DNA of 64,000 nt, taken from positions 2,824-66,823 of IMG/VR virus record IMGVR_UViG_3300021134_000001. The stretch is one strand, 5' to 3'. The position numbers and the translations under genes are program-made. Position 1 is the first letter of the stretch, and every line of letters starts with the position of its first letter. Below are positions 4,737 to 31,213 of the stretch, in pieces. The stretch comes from a virus. A model generated the notes under the pieces. That model ran no database searches. It was not told where the DNA came from and saw only the letters and a program-made list of their open reading frames with translations.

Positions 4737-4960
4737 ACGTAAAAGATTTTGAAGTATTAAACCGCCGCTATGCGATCGACATTAATCGCTTTCGTGATGG
4801 ACAAGGATTGACAGTTGATCTATTCAACGCTCTTTTTGACTACTACTGCCAAGGCAATGAAATGCCTTATGGAGTGGCGAAGGCGAGAACAGGCGATCCA
4901 TATGAATGGATAGACTCTCACTTTGGAGATTTCTTAAAAGATTTTGACAACTCACCGTAA
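4733..4960 (+). CDS. hypothetical protein
   Basis: 75-aa ORF, MPYG.AKAR.GDPY motif. Confidence 0.7.
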   Translation: MNVKDFEVLNRRYAIDINRFRDGQGLTVDLFNALFDYYCQGNEMPYGVAKARTGDPYEWIDSHFGDFLKDFDNSP

Positions 4961-5030
4961 CTGATGAGCCGTGCATTCGGCGAAACTACTGTTGTGCAAA
5001 TCAATAACTTGCACGACAGTAGTCTTACGG
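4955..5030 (+). ncRNA. hammerhead ribozyme HH5 (type I, long stem III), cut after C5024
   Basis: ccgtaa CTGATGA gccg-tgcatt-cggc GAAA ctactgttgtgcaa...ttgcacgacagtag TC ttacgg. Confidence 0.95.
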
Positions 5031-5142
5031 CCACCGTTGGAGCCGCCATTACGGTAAACAACGACCTTGTATCAGTTGACTCCCTTTGTTGACGAAATAC
5101 GAGCGCTTTTGACAGGTTGAGCGGTAATCAATCTGTCCTGTA
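5025..5142 (+). ncRNA. putative 118-nt small RNA released by HH5 and HH6
   Basis: non-coding interval between two predicted cleavage sites; folds into three hairpins. Confidence 0.55.
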
Positions 5143-5188
5143 CATGGATGTGTGTCCATGCTGATGAGTTCTAAAGAACGAAACAGAC
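5135..5188 (+). ncRNA. hammerhead ribozyme HH6 (type III), cut after A5142 (GUA triplet)
   Basis: ctgT A catgga-tgtgtg-tccatg CTGATGA gttc-taaa-gaac GAAA cag; stems I and II closed, stem III open. Confidence 0.9.
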
Positions 5189-5207
5189 TTATTATAAAGG
5201 AAATAAA

Positions 5208-7498
5208 ATGGAATATACGAAACTTGAGGAACTGCAAGGCATTTTCTCTGATTTTCACAAAGATTACTACGGATTTAGACCACGCTTTGCTAGCGCTGAA
5301 GAGTGGAATAGCAAAGAATGGTTGCAATCGCAAATTGATAGCATTCATGATGCGATAAACTGTAGAGCTAAAACACCGCAAGGTAGAGCAGCACTACTCG
5401 CCGAAGGGTGGGTAATTAACGATGATATTATAAAGGAATAAATATTATGAAAGTATTAAACAATCCACAGGTGTATATGGAACCTGGCACTTACTACATT
5501 GGTGATTTATGCTACGTATTACAAGATTCATGGGATGAATTCTGTAAAATCACTATTAGTGGTGAGCAATGTCTTAGCGGCGGATTTAGGTTTGCTGATG
5601 GACGCGAATTCGTTTCATTTACCACTATCTATGGTGATGGCACTTATTATGACAAAGATGGTTTTCAATATCCAGTTGATGCAGGCTTAATTGGTTGCAT
5701 TAGAGTCCAAGATATGGACAATGTAGATATCGATGAAGCGTCTCACGATGGAAGAGTGCATGTATTTACTAAACCATTTATATGCGAAAAGGTTGATGGT
5801 GTCCTTTACTTTGGTAAAGTGGCCATCGATCTCGATCCAAGTGATTATAACGATGATGAAGAGGAGTATGACGATGAGTAAATTGTTAGAACAACTCGAA
5901 GAAGAGTTAGGACTTCCTGCATGGAAGATTTTAGAAATGCAAAGAGCAGAGATGGCTGATCCATCCGCTATGCGCATGAATTTTCTAAATGGTACGCTAT
6001 ACGCTACACATTACGCGTATAGTGATATCAATCCGTATGAAGTATTACGTGTTGTATCAGATAATTGCTTAGAAGTTCGCGCAATGCGACACGAAAACGA
6101 TCCAAATGACATGCCAACGTTTGTGCCAGGCGGCTTTAGCGTCATCTGCACTCACTTCGGCAGCCGTGTAATCACAGTCGATCCTAAAGGTAAAGTGTTT
6201 AAGATTCGCCGTACAAAGCGTAATCCTGAACGTTGGACATACAAAGGTATGCGCTTTGCATTAGACAAAGAGCCACGCGCTTACTACGATCACAACTTTT
6301 AATAAAAGGAATACTATGAAAATGAAACATGAAAGGCATGCTCAAAAGATGGCTGATGCCATGTATCTTAATTTTATGGAGAATTCCTTAGATTATGTTC
6401 GAGATTCGACAGCAACTAAGGATGGCTTCGACGATTTAGATGAGTATCTTAAAGTAGAAAACTATGCGATAACATTATTCGCAATTCAATTATTAAAGGA
6501 AATACATGATTATAAATAAACAAAGAACGGCCTCATGGGTCGCTACGCTTCCTACGCTCACCTCTGAAGAGGATAGGCTCGCTCTTGCAGCCATCAAGTC
6601 CACTGTAAAGTCGATCAACGACAACAATGCACGTGATGAGAAATGGCGCAAGCGTTTCGATAAACACTGTAATGAAGTTGGCTATCCTCGCTATCGTGTC
6701 ACCATTCGTGCTCGTGGGCCAGTCAATGGTTACAAGTACGGCTATGGTGGCTATTTGAAACTCGCTGGTGGTAGTCGTTTTGACATCTACATCCACGTGA
6801 GAGGGTAACATGCCTAAATTCAAAATCCCAAAGAAATACCAAAAGTATATCGATGAAGATTCGATTGACGTTTATCACGGTCTCGATAGTTCGACGTATT
6901 TTGTATGGTTACGCTATGGATATAGTTACGACTATGAAAATAGTGGTAGCCATAATCAAGGATACGACTCACTTAAAGAGGCGTTAGCTGGTCTTGAAGA
7001 CGTTTATCTCTGCAACTGCGCTGATTGCGCTAAAGAGCCGCGTGGCACTCCAGTAAAGGACCTAATGAATGCCTAAATTTGTCGTTTATGAAACTAAAGA
7101 GAATGGTAAGGATTATGTCCTTGCCACTGTCGAAGGTATGGCAGCTGCTATGAAAGAGCTGAAGCGCCGTAAGAAGTTGGTGAAAGAAACCTCTGTTGTC
7201 GGTATGCAAGACAAAGAGATTTACCTATTTATTAAAAAACATCAAGAAAAGGAAGCTAAGAAAAATGGCAACTAAACCAAACACAGTAAAGAAGCAAAAG
7301 AACGGTAACATTACTCGTAATGGTAAACCAAAAATTAAATCGTTAAGTGTTGCACAGATTCAAAAGCTAATCGATCAAGGAGCGCAAAAGAACGCGACAT
7401 CAAAGATCGGTAAGAAGATGGCGAAACTTAAGAATGCACTATGTGCTCGATTTAAGCCATTGATTGATAGCGATCCTATTGGTTTCCAACAAAGTTAA
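5208..7498 (+). CDS. cluster of small hypothetical early proteins (5208-5441, 5447-5881, ~5874-6302, 6316-6519, 6506-6808, 6810-7076, 7069-7275, ~7265-7498)
   Basis: tightly packed ORFs with AAGGA-type RBS. Confidence 0.7.
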
Positions 7499-9800: not shown

Positions 9801-10013
9801 GAAGCAGAAGTTAAAGAGTCGTAAAGTAAAGCATAGGAAAAGATATGAATCCATTTGAAATGCTTGACTTAATTAGACGTACCCATCCTGATGGATATTG
9901 GCGCGCAAGGATTGCAACATATCTCGCAACGCATCGTTATACGATGAAGGAAGGTGCGGCTAATGAGTGGCGCAATGTTCCACCAGATGGATTACCTATA
10001 CAAGGAGAAAATC

Positions 10014-10496
10014 ATTAACATATTCTATCTTGACGCGGATCCTGTAAAGGCCGCAGAAATGCACTGTGATAAACATGTGTGTAAGATGATCATCGAAACG
10101 GCTCAAATGATGAGCTCGGTCCAAGCTCGTTATGGACTCGAAAATCCTCCATACAAACCAACGCATCAAAAGCATCCATCAACGCTGTGGTCAGGCGATA
10201 ACACGCTTCACTATGCATGGCTAAGAGCATTAGGATTGAGCTTATGCCGTGAGTATACGAAGCGCTATAATAAAACCCATAAGACTGAAGCGATTATTAA
10301 AGATTTATGGTCAGCGCCGCTTGGCATGCCTACAGGAGAGTGGAGCAATCCACCTCAATGTATGCCTGACGAGTGTAAGATGGATGACACCATCGATGCT
10401 TATCGTAAGTATTATGTTATTGCTAAAGCGAAGTTTGCCAAATGGGCACACGCAACTAAGGCACCGCAATGGTGGCCTAAGCTACAAACAATGTAA
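10014..10496 (+). CDS. pyrimidine-dimer DNA glycosylase (DenV-related) family protein
   Basis: NIFYLD.DP..AA..HCDKHV.KM..E.AQ, YKPTH..HP, PPQCMP, AYR.YY; probable ATT start. Confidence 0.75.
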   Translation: MNIFYLDADPVKAAEMHCDKHVCKMIIETAQMMSSVQARYGLENPPYKPTHQKHPSTLWSGDNTLHYAWLRALGLSLCREYTKRYNKTHKTEAIIKDLWSAPLGMPTGEWSNPPQCMPDECKMDDTIDAYRKYYVIAKAKFAKWAHATKAPQWWPKLQTM

Positions 10497-10539
10497 CTGA
10501 TGAGTCCTAATGGACGAAACGCCGTGAGGCGTCTTACAT
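10491..10539 (+). ncRNA. hammerhead ribozyme HH8 (type I), cut after C10533
   Basis: atgtaa CTGATGA gtcc-taat-ggac GAAA cgcc-gtga-ggcg TC ttacat. Confidence 0.96.
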
Positions 10540-10557: not shown

Positions 10558-12117
10558 ATGGCACGTAATATAAAGAAAGAAATAGGCGAGTTATATACAG
10601 CATTAAACTCCGTTCGCGCTGAAAAGCGATCTTTAGCGGCTCGAATGGATAACGCTCGACGTGCTAGCACTCTTGGGATCGACTTAGGTGACAACGAGTT
10701 TTACTATCGCGTCAGTATGGATTTCCGTGGTCGTTTGTATTATCGCGGCTCACATATGAATCCTCAAATGGGTGATGACATTAAGGTAATGTTAACCTTA
10801 GGCCAGAAGAAGCCGCTCACCGAGATGGGATTTAAATGGTTGTTATGGGGAATCGCTTCAGCTGCAGGCCAGAGTAAGAAGAGTTTCTCTGAGCGTGTCG
10901 AATGGACGCTTGAAAATTGGGCTAATATTCGCGAAGCCGTTCGCAATCCTATTGAATCTCAATGGTTTGCTGACGTCGTAATGGGTGAAGATGAGCCTGC
11001 ACTGTTTCTACAACGCGCTACTGTTGCAGTAGAGGCTGTAGAGTCTGGCGCTCCATTTGATTATCCAACAGATATCACTATTGCAATGGACGCAACATGC
11101 TCAGGTCTTCAGATTCTCTCAGCGGTCGCTCGTGACCTCGAAGGTGGACGCTTAGTCAACCTCGTCGACACTGGCGAGCGCCAAGACGTGTATCTGACGG
11201 TGCTGAATATGGTCAAGCAATCTTATGCAAACGATAACGATGTATTTGCTATCCACATGCGTGAGAATAGCGAAACCTTTGGTCGTCGATTTACAAAGAA
11301 AGTGGTAATGACATTGCCGTATTCTGCGACGTTTAGAAGTGCAGTTGGTTATATTCTAGACGAATTGCAAGGCAATATGGAGAAAAACAATCCTCCATTC
11401 CCATTGCCTGATTCTGTTGAAGATCGCTTAGCACTCTATAACGCCATCTTAGCCCGCAAAGGTAAGGATTTAGTTATAGATTCCACTTTAGCGAAGTTAG
11501 ACGATTTTAGTTTATATCGCATGCTTGCTGATTACCTTGGCCGTCTAGTAATGGACGCCTGTGATAAGTGTTTACCTGCGGCGCTAAATCTCTTACACTT
11601 TTTCCAATCGTGTCCTAAACATTTAGATGGACACGCACATTGGATGACGCCTGATGGATTTAGAGTAGACCAAGTTTATGGCTCTCGCGAACGTGAAAAG
11701 ATTCAATTTCGTTTACAAATGGCAGACCAAGAGACTGGCGAACTAATCAGTCAAAAGATTCAGCGTCGCTATGAATGGCTAGACCCAAACGAAAAGGATG
11801 GACGTAAAGCAGCTAACGGAATGCCACCTAATTGGGTGCACTCATTAGACGCAACGCTAGTGCGAATGGTAGTAAGAACATGCGATTTTCCAATCGTCTG
11901 TATTCACGATTCATTTGCATCACATCCGGCAGATTGTGAAGACTTATCTAAAGCGTTGCGTGAACAGTTTACACTTCTTGTTCAGCAAATGCCATTAGAG
12001 ACTTTAATTACACAATTGAACGAGCAAGTTGGCGATGAGATTTTCTCAACAACCAATTTGACTGTAAACACTTGGGATCCAGAGCAAGCGAAAACTTCAC
12101 CCTTTCTATTTTGTTAG
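10558..12117 (+). CDS. T7-family RNA polymerase, catalytic (C-terminal) subunit
   Basis: DFRGRLY, motif A DATCSGLQ, motif B R...K..VMT..Y, PNWVHSLDA, motif C IHDSF, F-rich C-terminus. Confidence 0.93.
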   Translation: MARNIKKEIGELYTALNSVRAEKRSLAARMDNARRASTLGIDLGDNEFYYRVSMDFRGRLYYRGSHMNPQMGDDIKVMLTLGQKKPLTEMGFKWLLWGIASAAGQSKKSFSERVEWTLENWANIREAVRNPIESQWFADVVMGEDEPALFLQRATVAVEAVESGAPFDYPTDITIAMDATCSGLQILSAVARDLEGGRLVNLVDTGERQDVYLTVLNMVKQSYANDNDVFAIHMRENSETFGRRFTKKVVMTLPYSATFRSAVGYILDELQGNMEKNNPPFPLPDSVEDRLALYNAILARKGKDLVIDSTLAKLDDFSLYRMLADYLGRLVMDACDKCLPAALNLLHFFQSCPKHLDGHAHWMTPDGFRVDQVYGSREREKIQFRLQMADQETGELISQKIQRRYEWLDPNEKDGRKAANGMPPNWVHSLDATLVRMVVRTCDFPIVCIHDSFASHPADCEDLSKALREQFTLLVQQMPLETLITQLNEQVGDEIFSTTNLTVNTWDPEQAKTSPFLFC

Positions 12118-12123
12118 GAATAT

Positions 12124-13029
12124 ATGAGTATAAAACAAGAACAAATCCAAAGAGAGTTAGAAGCGATTCGTTTAGTAAAACAGAGTAGACTTGAAAAGAC
12201 TGAACTTATGAACAGTCTTCAAGAGACCTTCTCTGAAGAAATTCAAACGCTAAGCGAATCTCTTACAAAGTGGTACGCAACGATGCAAGATCCTAAAGAT
12301 GATAATGCGTTACTTTATCAAAAATTAGTGTTTAGCATTGAAACGCCAGTTATGGCTGAACTTATCATTCGCGCTATCTTTGAAGGACTTATGATAACAA
12401 CGCATCAATCCGTGAATTATCAGTTTATCGTAGATCGCCTGCTTATTCAAAGGTATTTACGTAGCACGCTTCCTCCTGAAGAACGTGTTATCTTACCTAA
12501 GTATAAGTTCTTAGTGATCGATAGATTGGTTACACGATCAGTGCGATTACTAACAACGCTATTCTCCGAATCAATGGTTCGTGAGCGTAACGCTAAAGGT
12601 GAGGTTGAGACGTTTTACACCGTCCACCTTACTGAGTTAGGTCGTGAGCGATTAGCAAAGGTTCCACTAAATCAAGTAATCTCTGACGTTCCAATGTATT
12701 GTAAACCGCAGCCATGGACTTCAGTGTTTGATGGTGGATATCTAACAGCGGACGCGCAACGAGGAAATCCTTTGATTCAATCGAAGCGTCTTTCTTATCG
12801 CGAACTGCGTGCAATCGATAAAGAATTGCAAGCAAATCCACAGATCTTTGAGGCAGTAAATAAGATGCAAAATGTATCTTTTAGAATAGACCAAAAATCC
12901 AAAGATTATCAGAACACTATTGCGCAAGTGCGAAAACGTAAGATTAAGGAATGTGATCGCAAGATTACAGCCTACGTCGAGCAGATCGCGAAGCTCAAGA
13001 GTGACCTGGCGCAAGTGGATCCTATATAG
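12124..13029 (+). CDS. T7-family RNA polymerase, N-terminal-domain subunit
   Basis: PMYCKPQPWTSVFDGGYL and IFEAVNKMQNVSFRID resemble T7 RNAP PCVVPPKPWTGITGGGY and VYKAINIAQNTAWKIN. Confidence 0.82.
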   Translation: MSIKQEQIQRELEAIRLVKQSRLEKTELMNSLQETFSEEIQTLSESLTKWYATMQDPKDDNALLYQKLVFSIETPVMAELIIRAIFEGLMITTHQSVNYQFIVDRLLIQRYLRSTLPPEERVILPKYKFLVIDRLVTRSVRLLTTLFSESMVRERNAKGEVETFYTVHLTELGRERLAKVPLNQVISDVPMYCKPQPWTSVFDGGYLTADAQRGNPLIQSKRLSYRELRAIDKELQANPQIFEAVNKMQNVSFRIDQKSKDYQNTIAQVRKRKIKECDRKITAYVEQIAKLKSDLAQVDPI

Positions 13030-25259: not shown

Positions 25260-25661
25260 ATGAAACAACAGACCTATATGGAGATTGCCCAAACTATCTC
25301 TAAAGAGAGTAAAGCGACACGTGCCAAAGTTGGCGCCATCGCTGTAGTAGATGGAAGAATAGTGGCTTGTGGCTATAACGGCACTCCACCAGGTTTTGAT
25401 AACAATTGTGAGGATGAAAATGGAGTTACTAAAAAAGAAGTTATACATGCGGAATCTAACATTGTCGCATTTGCTAGCAAGCATGGTGTCAGCATTCGTG
25501 GTGCTAGTGTGTATTGCACTCTATCTCCTTGCGTTACCTGTGCTGCTCTGCTTAGCGCTGCTGGAATCTCTCGTTACTACTACCGGGACACTTATCGTGA
25601 TAGCGACGGTTTGCGTTTACTGGCTGATGCAGGTATAGAAACAATTAAAACGGAGGAATGA
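25260..25661 (+). CDS. dCMP deaminase
   Basis: KVGA, GYNG, HAE, PCxxC. Confidence 0.93.
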   Translation: MKQQTYMEIAQTISKESKATRAKVGAIAVVDGRIVACGYNGTPPGFDNNCEDENGVTKKEVIHAESNIVAFASKHGVSIRGASVYCTLSPCVTCAALLSAAGISRYYYRDTYRDSDGLRLLADAGIETIKTEE

Positions 25662-26149
25662 TGCATAAACATCACATCATACCTAAACATATAGGCGGCA
25701 CTGACCATCCATCTAATCTCATCGAACTTAGCGTCGAAGAGCACGCACTTGAGCATTTTAAACTTTTCCAACAAGATGGAAGATGGCAAGATGAAGTAGC
25801 GTACAAAGCACTCAGTGGAATGCTTGGAAAAGAAGATATTATTCGTGAGATTCAGCGTAACGTTGGTAAGATTAACGGCACGAGAAATAAAGTTAACGGA
25901 TGGTGGTCTAAAGTCCAACAACTCGGCTCTAAAGCTGGCGCCAAGAAAGGAGCTGAGCGATGTCGTGAGTTAGAAGTAAACAGTTTCTTTAACCCGTCTT
26001 TACGCAAAACCGCTCAATCAAAAGGTGGCAAACAAGGTGGTAAAGTTAATGGAACGCAGCGACTTGCCACGTGTCTTAATTGTCGTAAGACTGGACAGTT
26101 GACAGTAATGAATCGCTGGCACTTTGCGAAATGCAAGGTCCAACTATGA
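25658..26149 (+). CDS. HNH homing endonuclease
   Basis: HHIIP...GG.D...NLI.L...EH...H. Confidence 0.85.
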   Translation: MMHKHHIIPKHIGGTDHPSNLIELSVEEHALEHFKLFQQDGRWQDEVAYKALSGMLGKEDIIREIQRNVGKINGTRNKVNGWWSKVQQLGSKAGAKKGAERCRELEVNSFFNPSLRKTAQSKGGKQGGKVNGTQRLATCLNCRKTGQLTVMNRWHFAKCKVQL

Positions 26150-27485: not shown

Positions 27486-27938
27486 ATGGTAAATAAGACT
27501 CTTGAGAATTTAGAGAGTGCCTTAGCTGGAGAATCCATGGCGCATATTAAATATCGCTATTTTGCCAAGCTAGCGAGAGCTGAAGGTTTTGAAGAAGTAG
27601 CAAAACATTTTGAGCATACAGCTGATCAAGAAATCTTACATGCTTGGGGCCATTTAGAATTATTGGTAGGCAAACCATCAACTCAACGTTGTTTAGAGAT
27701 GGCCATCGAAGGTGAGACGTATGAGTTTACTGAAATGTATCCTAAGTTTGAGACTCAAGCACGTTTAGATGGACATAGTCACTGGCTTGAAGAAATTCAA
27801 GGTCAGATTGGCGAGTCTAAGGAGCATGCTGAGCAGTTCCAAGCGATTCTAAAGAAAGCTGAGAAGCGATTCAATGCTCTTAAGAAAGTTGAAGAGCGTC
27901 ACGCTAATGCCTATAAACAAGTAATGGAGAAACTATAA
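27486..27938 (+). CDS. rubrerythrin
   Basis: NL..A.AGES.A...Y..FA, E..HA, EGE.YE...MYP, E..H di-iron motifs. Confidence 0.92.
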
Positions 27939-28069
27939 TGGAATATCAAGAGATGCAACAGTGCATTGTCTGTGGGTATCTGATTAAAGATGAAGAGTTT
28001 AAAACTCTGCCCGACGACTTTGAGTGCCCTGACTGCGGCGTAGGTAAAGATGAATTCGAATTAGTTTAA
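27938..28069 (+). CDS. rubredoxin
   Basis: 43 aa, CIVCGY...[17 protein letters not shown]; overlaps rubrerythrin stop; not in ORF track. Confidence 0.88.
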
Positions 28070-28260
28070 AGGAGTAGTGTATGAATATCATTGTTGAACG
28101 TTTAATGAATCAAGGATTCGAAAGACAAGAAGCTATAAAGGAATTAAAGGTCCAGCGTAATATGGCAAAACGAGATATCATACCGATCGAAGAGTGTCTA
28201 ATGGATATGGGTTGTCCTCCAACTGAAGACTTCTATTACGCATTTAAAGAAGATTAATTA

Positions 28261-29106
28261 TTAGTAGGTCCATTGGGAGGCATTCAATGGAGGCAACCAT
28301 AGGCAGACCCACCGTGAGGTGTTGAGATACTTCGTAATAGAAAAGGCTCATCGCCAAGCCGGAAATATTGTAATGCCTACTGATAATCGTCTTGGACACG
28401 CAGACGTTAAAGTGAAGTGCAAGTAAGTGGAATGCTTACTGGTCAAAGAAGGAACCAGGTCCTATCGCGACGAGAGTATTCCTGAGAACGCTGAGCAACG
28501 ATAATGCTCCAAGGTCACTGGCTATATGCGTTGGAAGCGAAATAGTAGATACCAGTTACATGTACCAGTAGAAGTCTGGGTTGCCCTCTTGTAGGGTTGA
28601 CGATGAGCTAATGACTCGTCTGAAAGATTGACGTTCGCATGTAACAAAGAAATCCATATGGCGTTAGGTTGATCTCTAACATTGTTTGGTACTGCTGCTC
28701 GAGGTTGTCGAGTAGGCAATGGCTGAAGCCTTTAGGACTGGGGATTCTCGGTTGAAGAAGCCAACTAACATACGCCACTTAATACATATATGCGGAGTCC
28801 GTTCTAGACCACCTTCCGCGGGTCAGTGTAAGGTTCGAAACTTACATGTGTATAATTATAATGGTCGCCCACCACCACAAACAAAAGGTGGGCACTAATG
28901 AATACGCGTAAAGACACATCAACCCAATCTATCTATGGGAAATTATCCTAGCCAACTTCCACCTCACTTATACGAGGCATCGATCAGCTGATTACTTATC
29001 GAATAAAGGCTACCGCTAGGAGAAGCGATGCAATCGGCTCGAAAGAGTAACCTTAAACGTTCACGACCATACGCTCTTAAACGTATACGATAGAGTATTC
29101 ATTAGT
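28261..29106 (+). ncRNA. island of structured non-coding RNA domains
   Basis: no credible ORF; successive closed helices 28261/28383, 28555/28645, 28659/28777, 28782/28853, 28894/29106. Confidence 0.6.
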
Positions 29107-29112
29107 AACTAT

Positions 29113-29187
29113 TTCTCGATAGTGTTAACGGTAGCACGTCTGTCTCCAAAACAGAAGGTTGCGGTTCGAATCCGTATCGGGATGCCA
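29113..29187 (+). tRNA. tRNA-Trp (CCA)
   Basis: cloverleaf, anticodon arm tctgt-ctCCAaa-acaga, GGTTCGAATCC T-loop, encoded 3' CCA; U-U at pair 1:72. Confidence 0.9.
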
Positions 29188-29188
29188 A

Positions 29189-29258
29189 GTACTGTCAGTA
29201 CGGTGGGACGTGCAGGTCGACAAGACACGGACATGGTTCGAATCCTAACAGTACACAC
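29189..29258 (+). ncRNA. tRNA-like element with shrunken anticodon arm
   Basis: acceptor gtactgt/acagtac, D-arm gtac/gtgc, GGTTCGAATCC; no CCA. Confidence 0.5.
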
Positions 29259-29380
29259 GCCACGTAGATACTACACTCAGAAAACTGCTAAGCCAGATAC
29301 AGGCGATTTGCCAAGTCGACTAACCATGACCCTGCTGAGGAAGAGTTAGGGTATCCAAGGATTCAAGCGCCATACGTGGC
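29259..29380 (+). ncRNA. putative ~120-nt structured RNA
   Basis: closing helix gccacgta/tacgtggc, inner gatac/gtatc, ctcag/ctgag, accct/agggt. Confidence 0.45.
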
Positions 29381-29440
29381 TCCTAACATTGTAAACTTTT
29401 CCACAAACATTGTAAACTTATGAGAGAAGGATTGTAAACT

Positions 29441-30224
29441 ATGCCTATAGATTTAGACGATAAGGCTACGGCCGCAGAGCAACTGCAAAAGGTATTGGAA
29501 GATAATCTCTTCTTAAAGAATCTGTTTATGAAATATAAAGGAGTTGAGAATCCTTTTATTTGTGGTGGAAGTAAAGAGCAAGGCGAAGATGGATTGCCTG
29601 AATATATTATGGTCTGTCCAGCTCTAGGAGCGGATGGTTATGCTGTCTATAAAAAGTACAAAGACTACGACGCACCGAGTTATTAAATAAAGAAAGAATA
29701 AAATGAAAGACGATTTGATTTATCGTCTAAGAAAGCGAGCAGAGATTAGGCGGCAAATTACTTCACGTAAGTCTGTGCAGAATGGAGAGCCTGATCGCAT
29801 AGCTGATCTCTTAGAAGAAGCGGCAGACGCTTTAGATAAACTAACTAATAAGGAATTACAATGATAATGACATATACTAAAGATGAACTCTATCGTTCAT
29901 TTAGAGATGCTGTCGATCAATACTTTCAATTGCAACGCGACTATGAGATGTTGAAAAAGCATCGCGATGAGCTATTGCAAGAGAATCGTGATCTTAAGAA
30001 GAAGCCTGTATCCGTAGTCAGATGCGAAGGCTATTGCCAACAAGGTCGATTACCGTGCACTTGTGAGAAGGAGATGGATGATGAATGAGCTATCGCAAAG
30101 GCGAATAGCGATCTGTGCGGCTTGTCCTGAGTATTCATTCCTAGGATTCTGTAAGAAATGTGGGTGTGCTATGGCAGTAAAGACGCGTATGATTAGTGCC
30201 CAATGCCCCTTGAAGAAGTGGTAA
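29441..30224 (+). CDS. small hypothetical proteins, including a Cys-rich 47-aa ORF (30081-30224)
   Basis: packed ORFs; CxxC...CxxCGC...CP..KW pattern in the last. Confidence 0.6.
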
Positions 30225-30434: not shown

Positions 30435-30644
30435 TTAAGTTTCAACTTCTTCACCTCGTGGTGTATAAAGTTTATCAGCAGGACATTTAAACAAAGTAAC
30501 TGTTCCATTTGAATTATTTCTTATACAGTCAGGAGCGTTTACAACAGGTTTAGGTACTGTTAGGTATCTATACTCTGGCGTAGACGGTGAAGACACGCAA
30601 CCATTAAGAGCGATAAACGCTAAGGCAATAAGTAAGATTCGCAT
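30435..30644 (-). CDS. small outer-membrane lipoprotein
   Basis: signal peptide with lipobox LNGC. Confidence 0.75.
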   Translation of the reverse strand: MRILLIALAFIALNGCVSSPSTPEYRYLTVPKPVVNAPDCIRNNSNGTVTLFKCPADKLYTPRGEEVET

Positions 30645-31213
30645 TAGAATTTATACTGCGCATTTGCTGTATACCGATTGAAGCCACTAGAATAGTTGCC
30701 ACCTACTGAATTAAACCTAGTGTAGTCAGCAGTCACTGCCCATGCCTTGGTCAAGTCGTATTTGTAGCCAGTACCAAACAAGTAGCCATTACCTGTGCTA
30801 TTAGTTAGTCCTGAATTGACAAAGGAACGATCAAGGCCAGCTCGTGCGTACAAGCCATTGTAGACATAGTAACCCAACGACAGTTCGTAGTCATGATAAC
30901 GTTGCGAGTAACCACTATTTTCATAGGTATATTTAGTTGCTCCCGACTGGCCGTAGGCAAACTCACCGAAAAGTTTCTCTGTGAAGTTCCTACCGATGCC
31001 AAAGCGTTCGAATGAGGTTGTTCCACCTTGAGATCCAGCAGTGGTCGAGTTATGGTATTTGCCACTTGAAATTCCGACGCCTGCGGATACATAGTTCTTT
31101 CCATCGAGAAAAGAATTCTCCAAAGCATCGTTACTTGCGAAGATAGGAGTGGACTGAGCCATCGCTACGCTCGCGAAAAGGGCAACCAAAGCGGCTGTTA
31201 AGATTTTATACAT
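30644..31213 (-). CDS. outer-membrane beta-barrel protein (Ail/Lom/OmpA-barrel-like)
   Basis: signal peptide, amphipathic aromatic strands, C-terminal QYKF BAM signal. Confidence 0.85.
   Translation of the reverse strand: MYKILTAALVALFASVAMAQSTPIFASNDALENSFLDGKNYVSAGVGISSGKYHNSTTAGSQGGTTSFERFGIGRNFTEKLFGEFAYGQSGATKYTYENSGYSQRYHDYELSLGYYVYNGLYARAGLDRSFVNSGLTNSTGNGYLFGTGYKYDLTKAWAVTADYTRFNSVGGNYSSGFNRYTANAQYKF

Follow-up and report, generated by a model that had tools for sequence, protein, structure and literature searches.

The 64,000-nucleotide (nt) stretch of viral DNA considered here (bases 2824-66823 of the 66.8-kb IMG/VR virus record IMGVR_UViG_3300021134_000001), which we call the window and in whose coordinates positions are given, contains a 1.18-kb gap without credible open reading frame (ORF), 28258-29440, with the next credible ORF starting at 29441. 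A preliminary description had flagged 28261-28782, 522 nt corresponding to the 5' two-thirds of the gap, as one large or two medium structured RNAs. We favour, with moderate confidence, a different reading, in which the + strand of 28258-29440 is a 'stable-RNA island' of separately folded RNA modules, co-transcribed and swapped as cassettes between related phages, and not one large RNA. The modules follow each other in the order M1, block A, M3, M4, module C, hairpin H0 with family B, tRNA-Trp, a decayed tRNA-like element (module D) and module E (Table 1). The strongest structured RNAs, at 28766-28858 and 28867-29107, lie almost wholly outside the flagged coordinates.

Family B, a conserved unit of ~210 nt, has a minimum free energy (MFE) that none of 200 shuffles reaches (z -3.49). 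R1, a covariance model made from four sequences, reached distant copies in the IMG/VR loci L033/L034, L076 and L031. Two pattern scans on conserved words returned 24 and 41 IMG/VR stretches, and R1 matched 21 of the 24 and, over the full length, 18 of 20 new loci; L088, L092 and L107 gave no R1 match in the first scan, and L113 and L124 no full-length match in the second. Identical sequences were collapsed, L128, L123 and L130 were omitted as presumed duplicates of L125 and L117 (equal score and length), and the pairs L033/L099, L034/L106, L076/L094 and L031/L086 are one contig each. A P1 helix of 11-20 bp is present in all 32 unique copies, and this terminal helix, 12 bp long, has wholly different yet perfectly complementary sequences in two lineages. 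For the core (P1, P2, AAG/CUU, P3 and P4), 95.6% of cells are paired and 14 of 26 pairs have changed on both sides, a result equalled by 0 of 500 shuffles and compared with 39-51% in slid controls; one pair is G-U in 11 of the 32 copies. The interior enclosed by P4 and the 3' hairpin vary between subgroups. All five helices that define the family (P1, P2, AAG/CUU next to an invariant CUUAAAC, P3, and P4 as AUCCU/AGGAG) are found in the window. Note that the R1 score of the window, 302.6 bits, is high by construction, because its copy is among the four sequences of the model.

Module C is a three-way junction RNA of ~90 nt, composed of an outer P1 (6 bp here), a 17-nt single-stranded J1/2, P2 (GCGGAG/CUUCCGC), a J2/3 of GGGUCA and a P3 hairpin with a T-loop-like GGUUCGAAAC loop. 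The first link was an nhmmer match of 28773-28848 to L119 and L125. A pattern scan yielded 22 IMG/VR stretches and one contig of a metagenome-assembled genome (1,963 bp, the sole match among genome contigs), and these 23 instances, together with L151, collapsed to 18 unique copies. The individual MFE folds of the copies agree on the three-way junction. Over the 18 copies, 95.1% of cells are paired, 23 of 31 pairs have changed on both sides, no shuffle out of 500 was as good and slid controls gave 35-53%, with G-U in 7 copies at one pair. The invariance of J1/2 was partly imposed by the search pattern, that of ACCUUCC.CGGGU.A was not. The model R2, built from the 18 sequences and thus including the window copy, scores that copy at 75.9 bits (E 5e-17); it finds a single copy in the window and, among 62 other loci, matches only L119 and L125. 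The window copy has a complete core and a P1 of 6 bp, compared with 11-26 bp elsewhere, and no CCA precedes it. Compensatory change of this extent establishes family B and module C, at the level of aligned sequences, as covariation-supported structured RNA families.

Both families are missing from Rfam 15 and, at blastn sensitivity, from GenBank phages, the gap and the members of both families giving no match in 50,697 GenBank phage records; they are apparently uncatalogued. Rfam gave no match at the family B positions of 6 loci. Exact patterns of the invariant 3' part of family B recovered only 3 already known contigs in IMG/VR, the same core was found 0 times in metagenome contigs, and the family B pattern 0 times in 185,579 species genomes. 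Family B or module C may already be among the 8,495 unnamed candidate structured RNAs from IMG/VR that are reported in a 2023 survey (PMC10690425).

tRNAs are present in 30 of the 32 family B loci, all on the strand of the element. In 12 copies the start lies -1 to 5 nt from the 3' end of a tRNA, mostly tRNA-Gly, 16 copies end ≤18 nt before a tRNA, often tRNA-Met, and in L099 family B fills the space from tRNA-Gly to tRNA-Asn. Of the 20 copies that no tRNA abuts, 15 are preceded by a hairpin (≥6 bp) whose end lies ≤3 nt from P1. In the window, H0 lies directly 5' of family B and is invariant in the four window-type copies. For module C, the 5' arm of P1 starts, by eye, within or just after an encoded ...CCA end in 9 of the 18 unique copies. 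In L132 and L146 it lies inside permuted transfer-messenger RNA (tmRNA) genes called by ARAGORN, between the CCA of the acceptor piece and the G run at the 5' end of the coding piece, and it adjoins permuted tmRNA calls in L135, L142 and L139 (5 calls among 10 loci submitted); the Rfam tmRNA_permuted model matched the three loci scanned. The two predicted RNAs are found in other phages flush between tRNA genes, and module C also within the intervening sequence (IVS) of permuted tmRNA.

We note that the permuted tmRNA genes (L132 2236-2644, L146 1910-2312, L135 5184-5551, L142 13287-13722 and L139 13837-14228) belong to uncultured IMG/VR phages, have tags ending ...ALAA and are of beta- or alpha-proteobacterial Rfam type, some of them in large tRNA arrays (24 tRNAs in L135). 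Recurrent tRNA-free gaps of ~165, 295 and 421 nt separate family B from the next tRNA (for example in L103, L112, L121, L127 and L129 on the 5' side and in L086, L087, L111, L094 and L108 on the 3' side) and suggest further RNA modules. Moreover, AUGGUCG at 28860-28866, 5' of H0, is complementary to CGACCAU at 29064-29070 in the 3' domain of family B; both are invariant in the 4 window-type copies, which gives covariation neither for nor against, and could form a pseudoknot or an alternative pairing. Three other assignments were discarded. A permuted tRNA-like gene whose acceptor stem would be H0 (...ACCA followed by 9 nt and the complementary 5' strand) has no T-arm adjoining the hairpin, and other family B copies carry unrelated hairpins there; family B as a tmRNA coding piece scores at best 12.5 bits, at a position outside tmRNA; and a sigma-70-like site just 5' of H0 (28835-28862) is not conserved in L006, L004 and L005.

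This layout, in which the termini pair and lie flush with tRNA or tmRNA ends and hairpins stand in where there is no tRNA, points to release by the tRNA-processing machinery. The island would be transcribed as a precursor along with the tRNA, from which host tRNA-processing enzymes would excise the modules, RNase P cutting at the 5' end of the downstream tRNA and tRNA 3'-end processing acting either on the upstream tRNA or on an acceptor-like hairpin, of which H0 is an example; each released module would be protected by the terminal helix P1 joining both of its ends. Such release would resemble the production of T4 rnaC and rnaD from a tRNA cluster and the removal of the IVS from two-piece tmRNA. 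As to function, our guess, held with low confidence, is that the released RNAs work in trans and that their target is the host machinery for RNA processing or for translation; a role in cis, in which they would punctuate the polycistronic transcript for processing and stability, ranks second. Bolder, and in our view improbable, is the idea of uncatalogued RNA classes, with module C a new ribozyme or processing guide for tRNA and tmRNA 3' ends, and family B plus the 5' modules a new GOLLD-like giant RNA-only assembly on the host translation apparatus.

The 5' part of the gap behaves differently from these two families, and its relatives are few. Relatives were taken from the best 80 of the 477 IMG/VR stretches matching the rubrerythrin gene of the window. 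Only L006 among these 80 shares 28386-28554 (94%) and 28714-28771 (85%), and the segments between them are replaced by unrelated sequence; searching with the 58-aa ORF found as relative the contig of L006 only. The segment 28860-29109 is shared with L006 (98%), and L004 and L005 share only 28860-29085 (76%). L006 has an additional tRNA-Thr and is without 29190-29380. L005 runs from the 58-aa ORF through 48 nt to H0 and family B and on to an ORF with a ribosome-binding site, with no tRNA and nothing like 28258-28860. Contigs from lake-water runs supply further variants of the gap; additional runs with small word shares (X8-X21) were left aside. On one RNA-library contig, 28313-28593 is replaced by 110 nt (28312 joined to 28594), the last 30 of which repeat 28564-28593 in diverged form. 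On balance 171 nt are lost, close to the 169 nt of block A, and this would correspond to loss of that block. Because pieces come and go independently in L006, L005 and the environmental contigs, the gap is built of cassettes, and the flagged region is a mosaic and not a fixed unit. The predicted modules of the flagged coordinates are lineage-specific, occurring in one IMG/VR relative and in environmental variants. In L006, a 123-aa ORF (4924-5295, +) runs through the equivalent of the non-coding region, with an ATG arising from an A-to-T change at the equivalent of window position 28450; the frame is closed in the window and the ORF is probably spurious.

The observation of more than 500 nt without credible ORF is confirmed: the longest ORFs inside the gap are of 65 aa (- strand, 28522-28719), 59 aa (+ strand, 28719-28898) and 56 aa (- strand). 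The flagged stretch also lies, as described, beside a tRNA, and it is on the transcribed + strand, the direction of the flanking genes. The six helices named there (helices 1 to 6, Table 1) are all present within 1 nt of the starts given, with the correction that in three of them the second number marked the end and not the start of the arm. The number of helices in the flagged stretch is, however, not above chance: 28261-28782 contains 336 stacks of ≥6 bp, 128 of ≥7 bp and 45 of ≥8 bp, compared with means of 386, 146 and 54.5 in 20 mononucleotide shuffles. The MFE of 28258-28790 (533 nt) has a z of -0.69 on the + strand, 26 of 100 shuffles being as good, and of -0.12 on the - strand.

Known RNA classes do not account for the gap. 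The 4227 families of Rfam 15, run on the whole window at gathering thresholds, gave two matches only, the tRNA and a hammerhead at 10491, and in 28000-29600 at E≤10 only the tRNA and a chance match of snoR09 (E=1); inside the gap no family but tRNA is found. For GOLLD and ROOL, cited in the preliminary description as a precedent, the models had no match in the window at gathering scores or in 28000-29600 at E≤10, nor did they match any of 9 related loci, scanned at E≤1 or E≤0.1. That description had refrained from assigning the region by eye to tmRNA, RNase P or an intron. Group I and group II introns and RNase P RNA gave no Rfam match in 28000-29600 at E≤10, and RF01998 (group-II-D1D4-1) gave 0 matches in the whole record at E≤10. 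No tmRNA, standard or permuted, was found in the window by ARAGORN or Rfam, and H0 has U3-A70, where tmRNA has a G3:U70 pair, and no adjoining T-arm; the tools work on such material, because both find permuted tmRNAs in related loci. Self-cleaving ribozyme models (hammerhead, HDV-like, twister, pistol and hatchet) found none in the gap, and since a hammerhead was found at 10491-10539, the scan is able to detect such RNAs in this genome. ARAGORN and Rfam (E≤10) detected no tRNA in 28258-29110 or 29189-29255, with 29113-29187 alone scoring, and the two models with filters off detected no second, diverged copy of family B or module C in the flagged region. A 12-mer that block A has in common with some members of family B, accompanied by collinear 8-mers, has an E of 0.11 and was taken as chance. 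With ordinary helix counts, an ordinary 533-nt fold and an empty Rfam result, the sequence by itself leaves the RNA question open.

Comparison with relatives decides against the long-range architecture. The two crossing pairings that were to tie the region together both fail in L006: TAGGAC of helix 5 has become TGAGGA with GTCCTA unchanged, and TTCTCGG of helix 6 has become TTCGCGG with CTGAGAA unchanged. The L006 changes in these 3' arms are compensated within the local hairpin 28738-28751 (28741/28748), and the changes of contig X24 within GTCCTA are matched by 28452-53, again in a local hairpin (pairs 28452-53/28460-61). Helix 4 is not conserved in L006, both arms lying in replaced or diverged sequence. 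In the flagged region, the alignments support only local hairpins, and neither a single large RNA nor a long-range pseudoknot. The idea of one RNA can be extended to 28258-29107 (~850 nt), as one giant GOLLD-like molecule with family B as its conserved 3' domain, the flagged region as its variable 5' domain and tRNA-like pieces embedded. The window has such a conserved-3'/variable-5' layout and a lake-water origin, and RNA-library contigs cross the module borders; yet GOLLD and ROOL models match neither here (E≤10 in the gap) nor in the 9 related loci, L005 has family B without any 5' region, 12 of the 32 family B copies begin directly at the 3' end of a tRNA, both long-range pairings fail in L006, and the fold of the whole region has a z of -0.69. 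We consider a single giant RNA quite unlikely.

The island reading instead makes the local elements the units. Among the sub-modules of the flagged stretch, only M1 and M3a fold modestly better than shuffles. M1 begins 1 nt past the stop codon of the 58-aa ORF, its 12-bp helix is reached by 8 of 2000 local shuffles and its MFE has a z of -2.12 (7/200). M3a (z -2.31, 3/200 shuffles), with its predicted closing helix, has no homologs in 151 loci; for one of its hairpins, CCAG (28565-68) with CUGG (28576-79), an RNA-library contig has CCUG/CAGG in its loose end, by eye one compensatory A-U to U-A change. M3b (z -1.17), the weakest part of the gap, shows 6 differences under RNA-library contigs from 2 studies, none of them informative on pairing. 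M4 is 85% identical to L006 5110-5168, with 16 predicted pairs kept in both sequences and one G-U to C-G double change (z -0.62).

Block A is 94% identical in L006, though both flanks have been replaced, and 90 of its 169 positions are predicted to pair, with an MFE z of only -1.04. Relative to L006 and the contigs X24 and X5, 4 distinct pairs have changed on both sides, 3 one-sided changes are kept and 0 broken, with 7 unpaired positions. In the helix 2 hairpin, the pairs 28426/28436 and 28425/28437 go from A-U to G-C in different variants, and G-U arises from changes at 28421 (pair 28421/28440) and 28438 (pair 28438/28424); in the neighbouring hairpin, the adjacent pairs 28452/28461 and 28453/28460 both changed together in the X24 contig. 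Because two one-sided changes give G-U, which is valid on the + strand only, the structure is placed on the + strand. A block A pattern found in IMG/VR the contig of L006 alone and in metagenome contigs one unrelated G+C-rich contig with only a 20-mer in common. Local hairpins of the flagged coordinates thus stay paired through natural substitutions, which the long-range pairs do not.

Would debris look the same? Were 28258-28771 a decaying spacer of worn-out tRNA genes and intron or homing-endonuclease remnants with incidental hairpins, one would expect what is seen in fold energies near those of shuffles, helix counts not above chance, high indel turnover and a single relative as the only source of homologs, over 1.1 Mb of related loci, 8 scans of IMG/VR and 2 of metagenomes; a decayed tRNA-like element (29189-29255) and a homing-endonuclease gene (25658-26149) are nearby. 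Against this, block A is 94% conserved between replaced flanks, pairing survives each of the 7 substitution events at paired positions (4 are double changes, and 3 of these doubles are in contigs not used for structure prediction), and there is no tRNA, intron or other Rfam signal even at E≤10. We consider decay unlikely.

A conserved small ORF also fails to explain the region. The window and L006 have no conserved ORF in the gap except one 25-aa frame with a GTG start (28427-28504; L006 4902-4979), which is open in both with 2 conservative differences and might be the functional unit of block A. It spans, however, 78 of the 169 conserved nt, no Shine-Dalgarno-like sequence was seen upstream on reading, and the paired double changes of X24 are radical in this frame (Gly to Glu and Ser to Leu, translated by hand), yet restore the base pairs exactly; the 123-aa ORF of L006 is closed in the window. 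A small protein is thus scarcely credible as the explanation. Finally, the inverted repeats could act as DNA, as protein-binding or recombination sites (ends of a miniature mobile element, an origin, promoter hairpins) and not as RNA helices. The modules do behave as insertion/deletion cassettes bounded by inverted repeats, and N4-type phages use DNA hairpin promoters. In families B and C, however, the terminal repeats vary by compensatory change around a conserved interior, the opposite of transposon ends, and G-U pairs are frequent and strand-specific; we hold a DNA-level element to be very improbable. Overall, the flagged stretch is probably functional as RNA, lineage-specific and modular. 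What had been observed there is partly confirmed, and its interpretation partly supported.

Metatranscriptome contigs, from three runs in as many studies, cover 28282-28312 (in M1), 28386-28554, 28594-28845 and 28913-29067 (in family B), and a 340-nt RNA-library contig spans block A exactly, with flanks of the L006 type. Such contigs are absent from 28081-28257 and 29093-29450, an absence of cover that is not informative. These data are compatible with transcription of the island.

Several points weigh against the island reading. RNA-library contigs do not prove transcription, because contaminating DNA is possible in such libraries, and they bridge module borders (340 nt over M1-A-M3, of L006 type; 28621-28845 over M3-M4-C), as equally expected of a single long RNA. 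The fold energies of the whole region and of most modules are no better than those of shuffles. In L006, the closing helix of M1 is weak, 6+2 bp with a bulge, and 6 bp are reached by 1366 of 2000 shuffles. The modules of the flagged coordinates rest on one full-length relative and three partial contigs, with ~8 informative pair events, and the structure of block A was partly predicted from the same two sequences used for comparison. As to release, 9 of the 18 module C copies, that of the window included, are not preceded by a CCA end, and what comes after family B in L004 and L005 is an ORF with a ribosome-binding site and not a tRNA, so RNase P cannot set the 3' end of family B there.

Table 1. 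Features of the island, helices named in the preliminary description (start of each arm) and neighbouring genes, in window coordinates
Feature	Position	Strand	Description
N4-type RNA polymerase, two subunits	10558-12117 and 12124-13029	+	
Homing endonuclease	25658-26149	+	
Rubrerythrin	27486-27938	+	
Rubredoxin	27938-28069	+	
58-aa ORF	28081-28257	+	last ORF before the gap
M1	28258-28386	+	hairpin domain; 12-bp closing helix
Helix 1	28261 / 28376		TTAGTAGG / CCTACTGA; 8 pairs including 1 G-U; extendable to 12 bp (28258-28269 / 28375-28386)
Block A	28386-28554	+	169-nt cassette; about six local hairpins including 28420-28441 and 28442-28471; 3' end ...ACCA
Helix 2	28422 / 28434		AGTAAGT / GCTTACT
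Helix 5 (long-range)	28459 / 28733		GTCCTA / TAGGAC
Helix 6 (long-range)	28482 / 28745		CTGAGAA / TTCTCGG
M3a	28555-28645	+	8-9-bp closing helix GTTACATG / CATGTAAC enclosing three small hairpins
Helix 3	28555 / 28638		GTTACATG / CATGTAAC
M3b	28646-28713	+	two small hairpins
Helix 4	28659 / 28772		TGGCGT / ACGCCA
M4	28714-28771	+	stem UGGCU (28720-24) / AGCCA (28761-65) around hairpin 28738-28751
Module C	28766-28858	+	three-way junction RNA
H0	28867-28893	+	7-bp G+C-rich hairpin GCCCACC / GGUGGGC; loop starts ACCA
Family B RNA	28894-29106	+	P1 28894-28905 / 29095-29106; P2 28906-09 / 29081-84; AAG 28911-13 / CUU 29076-78; P3 28923-26 / 28936-39; P4 28946-50 / 29017-21 around variable domain; 3' stem 29024-29075 with GAAA loop cap
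tRNA-Trp (CCA anticodon)	29113-29187	+	ARAGORN; Rfam tRNA 53.4 bits; 6 nt past the 3' end of family B P1
Module D	29189-29255	+	degenerate tRNA-like element; 7-bp acceptor-like stem; GGTTCGAATCC motif; inverted repeat I12
Module E	29256-29383	+	128 nt; 8-bp closing helix 29259-66 / 29373-80; inverted repeat I18

Downstream of tRNA-Trp, the sole tRNA of the window, module D has a cloverleaf-like MFE fold (z -1.51) and is absent from L006, as is module E (z -0.94), which has no homolog in the 151 loci. Three tandem copies of ATTGTAAACT(T), 21-22 nt apart (29388-29445, +), end at the start codon of ORF 29441. There are no other exact copies in the window, 18 matches with ≤1 mismatch compared with 6.9 expected, and two copies visible in L006; the array is possibly an operator or phage promoter array, and with exact copies confined to the three tandem sites we rejected ATTGTAAACT as a phage promoter word.

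The source phage is N4-like and of freshwater, and the record has a completeness of 59% (CheckV). Genes run on the + strand up to ~30.1 kb (DNA ligase, methyltransferase, primase-helicase, DNA polymerase I and the homing endonuclease among them) and on the - strand from 30.6 kb (portal, major head), so placed that the gap lies towards the end of the early/middle gene arm. The phage carries rubrerythrin and rubredoxin as a gene pair, the rubrerythrin being up to 84% identical to its 477 IMG/VR matches. The hammerhead is of type I (10491-10539, +; Rfam 36.1 bits, gathering score 34) and lies in the 61-nt gap that follows a 'DNA binding protein' gene of phrog_624 (9954-10496) and precedes the gene for the large subunit of N4-type RNA polymerase II (10558-12117). 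At the junction of both gene arms, a 189-aa ORF (30644-31213, -) matches the OMP_b-brl outer-membrane beta-barrel domain (E 3.4e-09).

The DNA between phage tRNAs is usually ignored, and the clusters are read as codon-supply or anti-defence devices. The two covariation-supported RNA families described here occupy phage tRNA spacers in dozens of uncultured IMG/VR phage records, which suggests that phages use the host tRNA-processing machinery as a general route to other stable RNAs; if this is true, T4 rnaC and rnaD, and perhaps GOLLD and ROOL, would be part of a broader class. Compact RNAs of ~90 and ~210 nt are thereby offered for work on structure and function, the flagged stretch itself being a more modest result. 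In the literature we found no description of such structured RNAs between phage tRNAs beyond GOLLD, ROOL and theta ribozymes, which is no proof of their absence from print.

GOLLD and ROOL are likewise phage-borne and often near tRNA islands. GOLLD is described in 10.1101/2024.12.08.627333 as having a 3' region that is conserved and a 5' region that varies, and as first found in lake metagenomes. The window has a similar layout, a conserved 3' unit and a variable 5' region near a tRNA; yet this 3' unit occurs alone in L005, and 12 of its 32 copies come directly after tRNAs. The differences from GOLLD and ROOL are the lack of a match to either Rfam model, a conserved unit of ~210 nt and not 400-800 nt, and its occurrence without the 5' region. 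Theta ribozymes, which are minimal HDV-like ribozymes, are small structured RNAs at tRNA 3' ends; their 5' edge coincides with a viral tRNA 3' end, and they have been proposed to mature tRNA 3' ends (PMC10879173). Module C and family B, too, often start at a CCA end. No HDV-like or other ribozyme model matches here, however, and the fold of module C is not a nested double pseudoknot but a three-way junction that its own termini close.

Transcripts of permuted tmRNA are, in the available portion of PMC11915505, 'cleaved by tRNA processing enzymes', whereby the IVS is removed. That portion mentions a tRNA-Ala and a repetitive element inside IVSs and reports no conserved structured IVS. Module C lies at exactly the IVS position in L132 and L146, between ...CUCCACCA and the GGGG 5' end; it differs in that the window is without tmRNA, and in that module C is also found alone between ordinary tRNAs or away from tRNAs. 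For T4 rnaC (species 1) and rnaD (species 2), R1 run with filters off on T4 68000-76000 gave at best 8.1 bits, not at rnaC or rnaD. These RNAs thus differ from family B in having no homology detected by R1, in their length (119-139 nt compared with ~180-235 nt) and in belonging to Tevenvirinae and not to N4-like phages. The arrangement is the same: both are annotated in the T4 record as 'small, stable RNA' directly after tRNA-Arg, both are non-tRNA structured RNAs beside phage tRNA genes on the same strand, and rnaC carries near its 3' end a T-arm-like GGTTCGAATCC, as do modules C and D.

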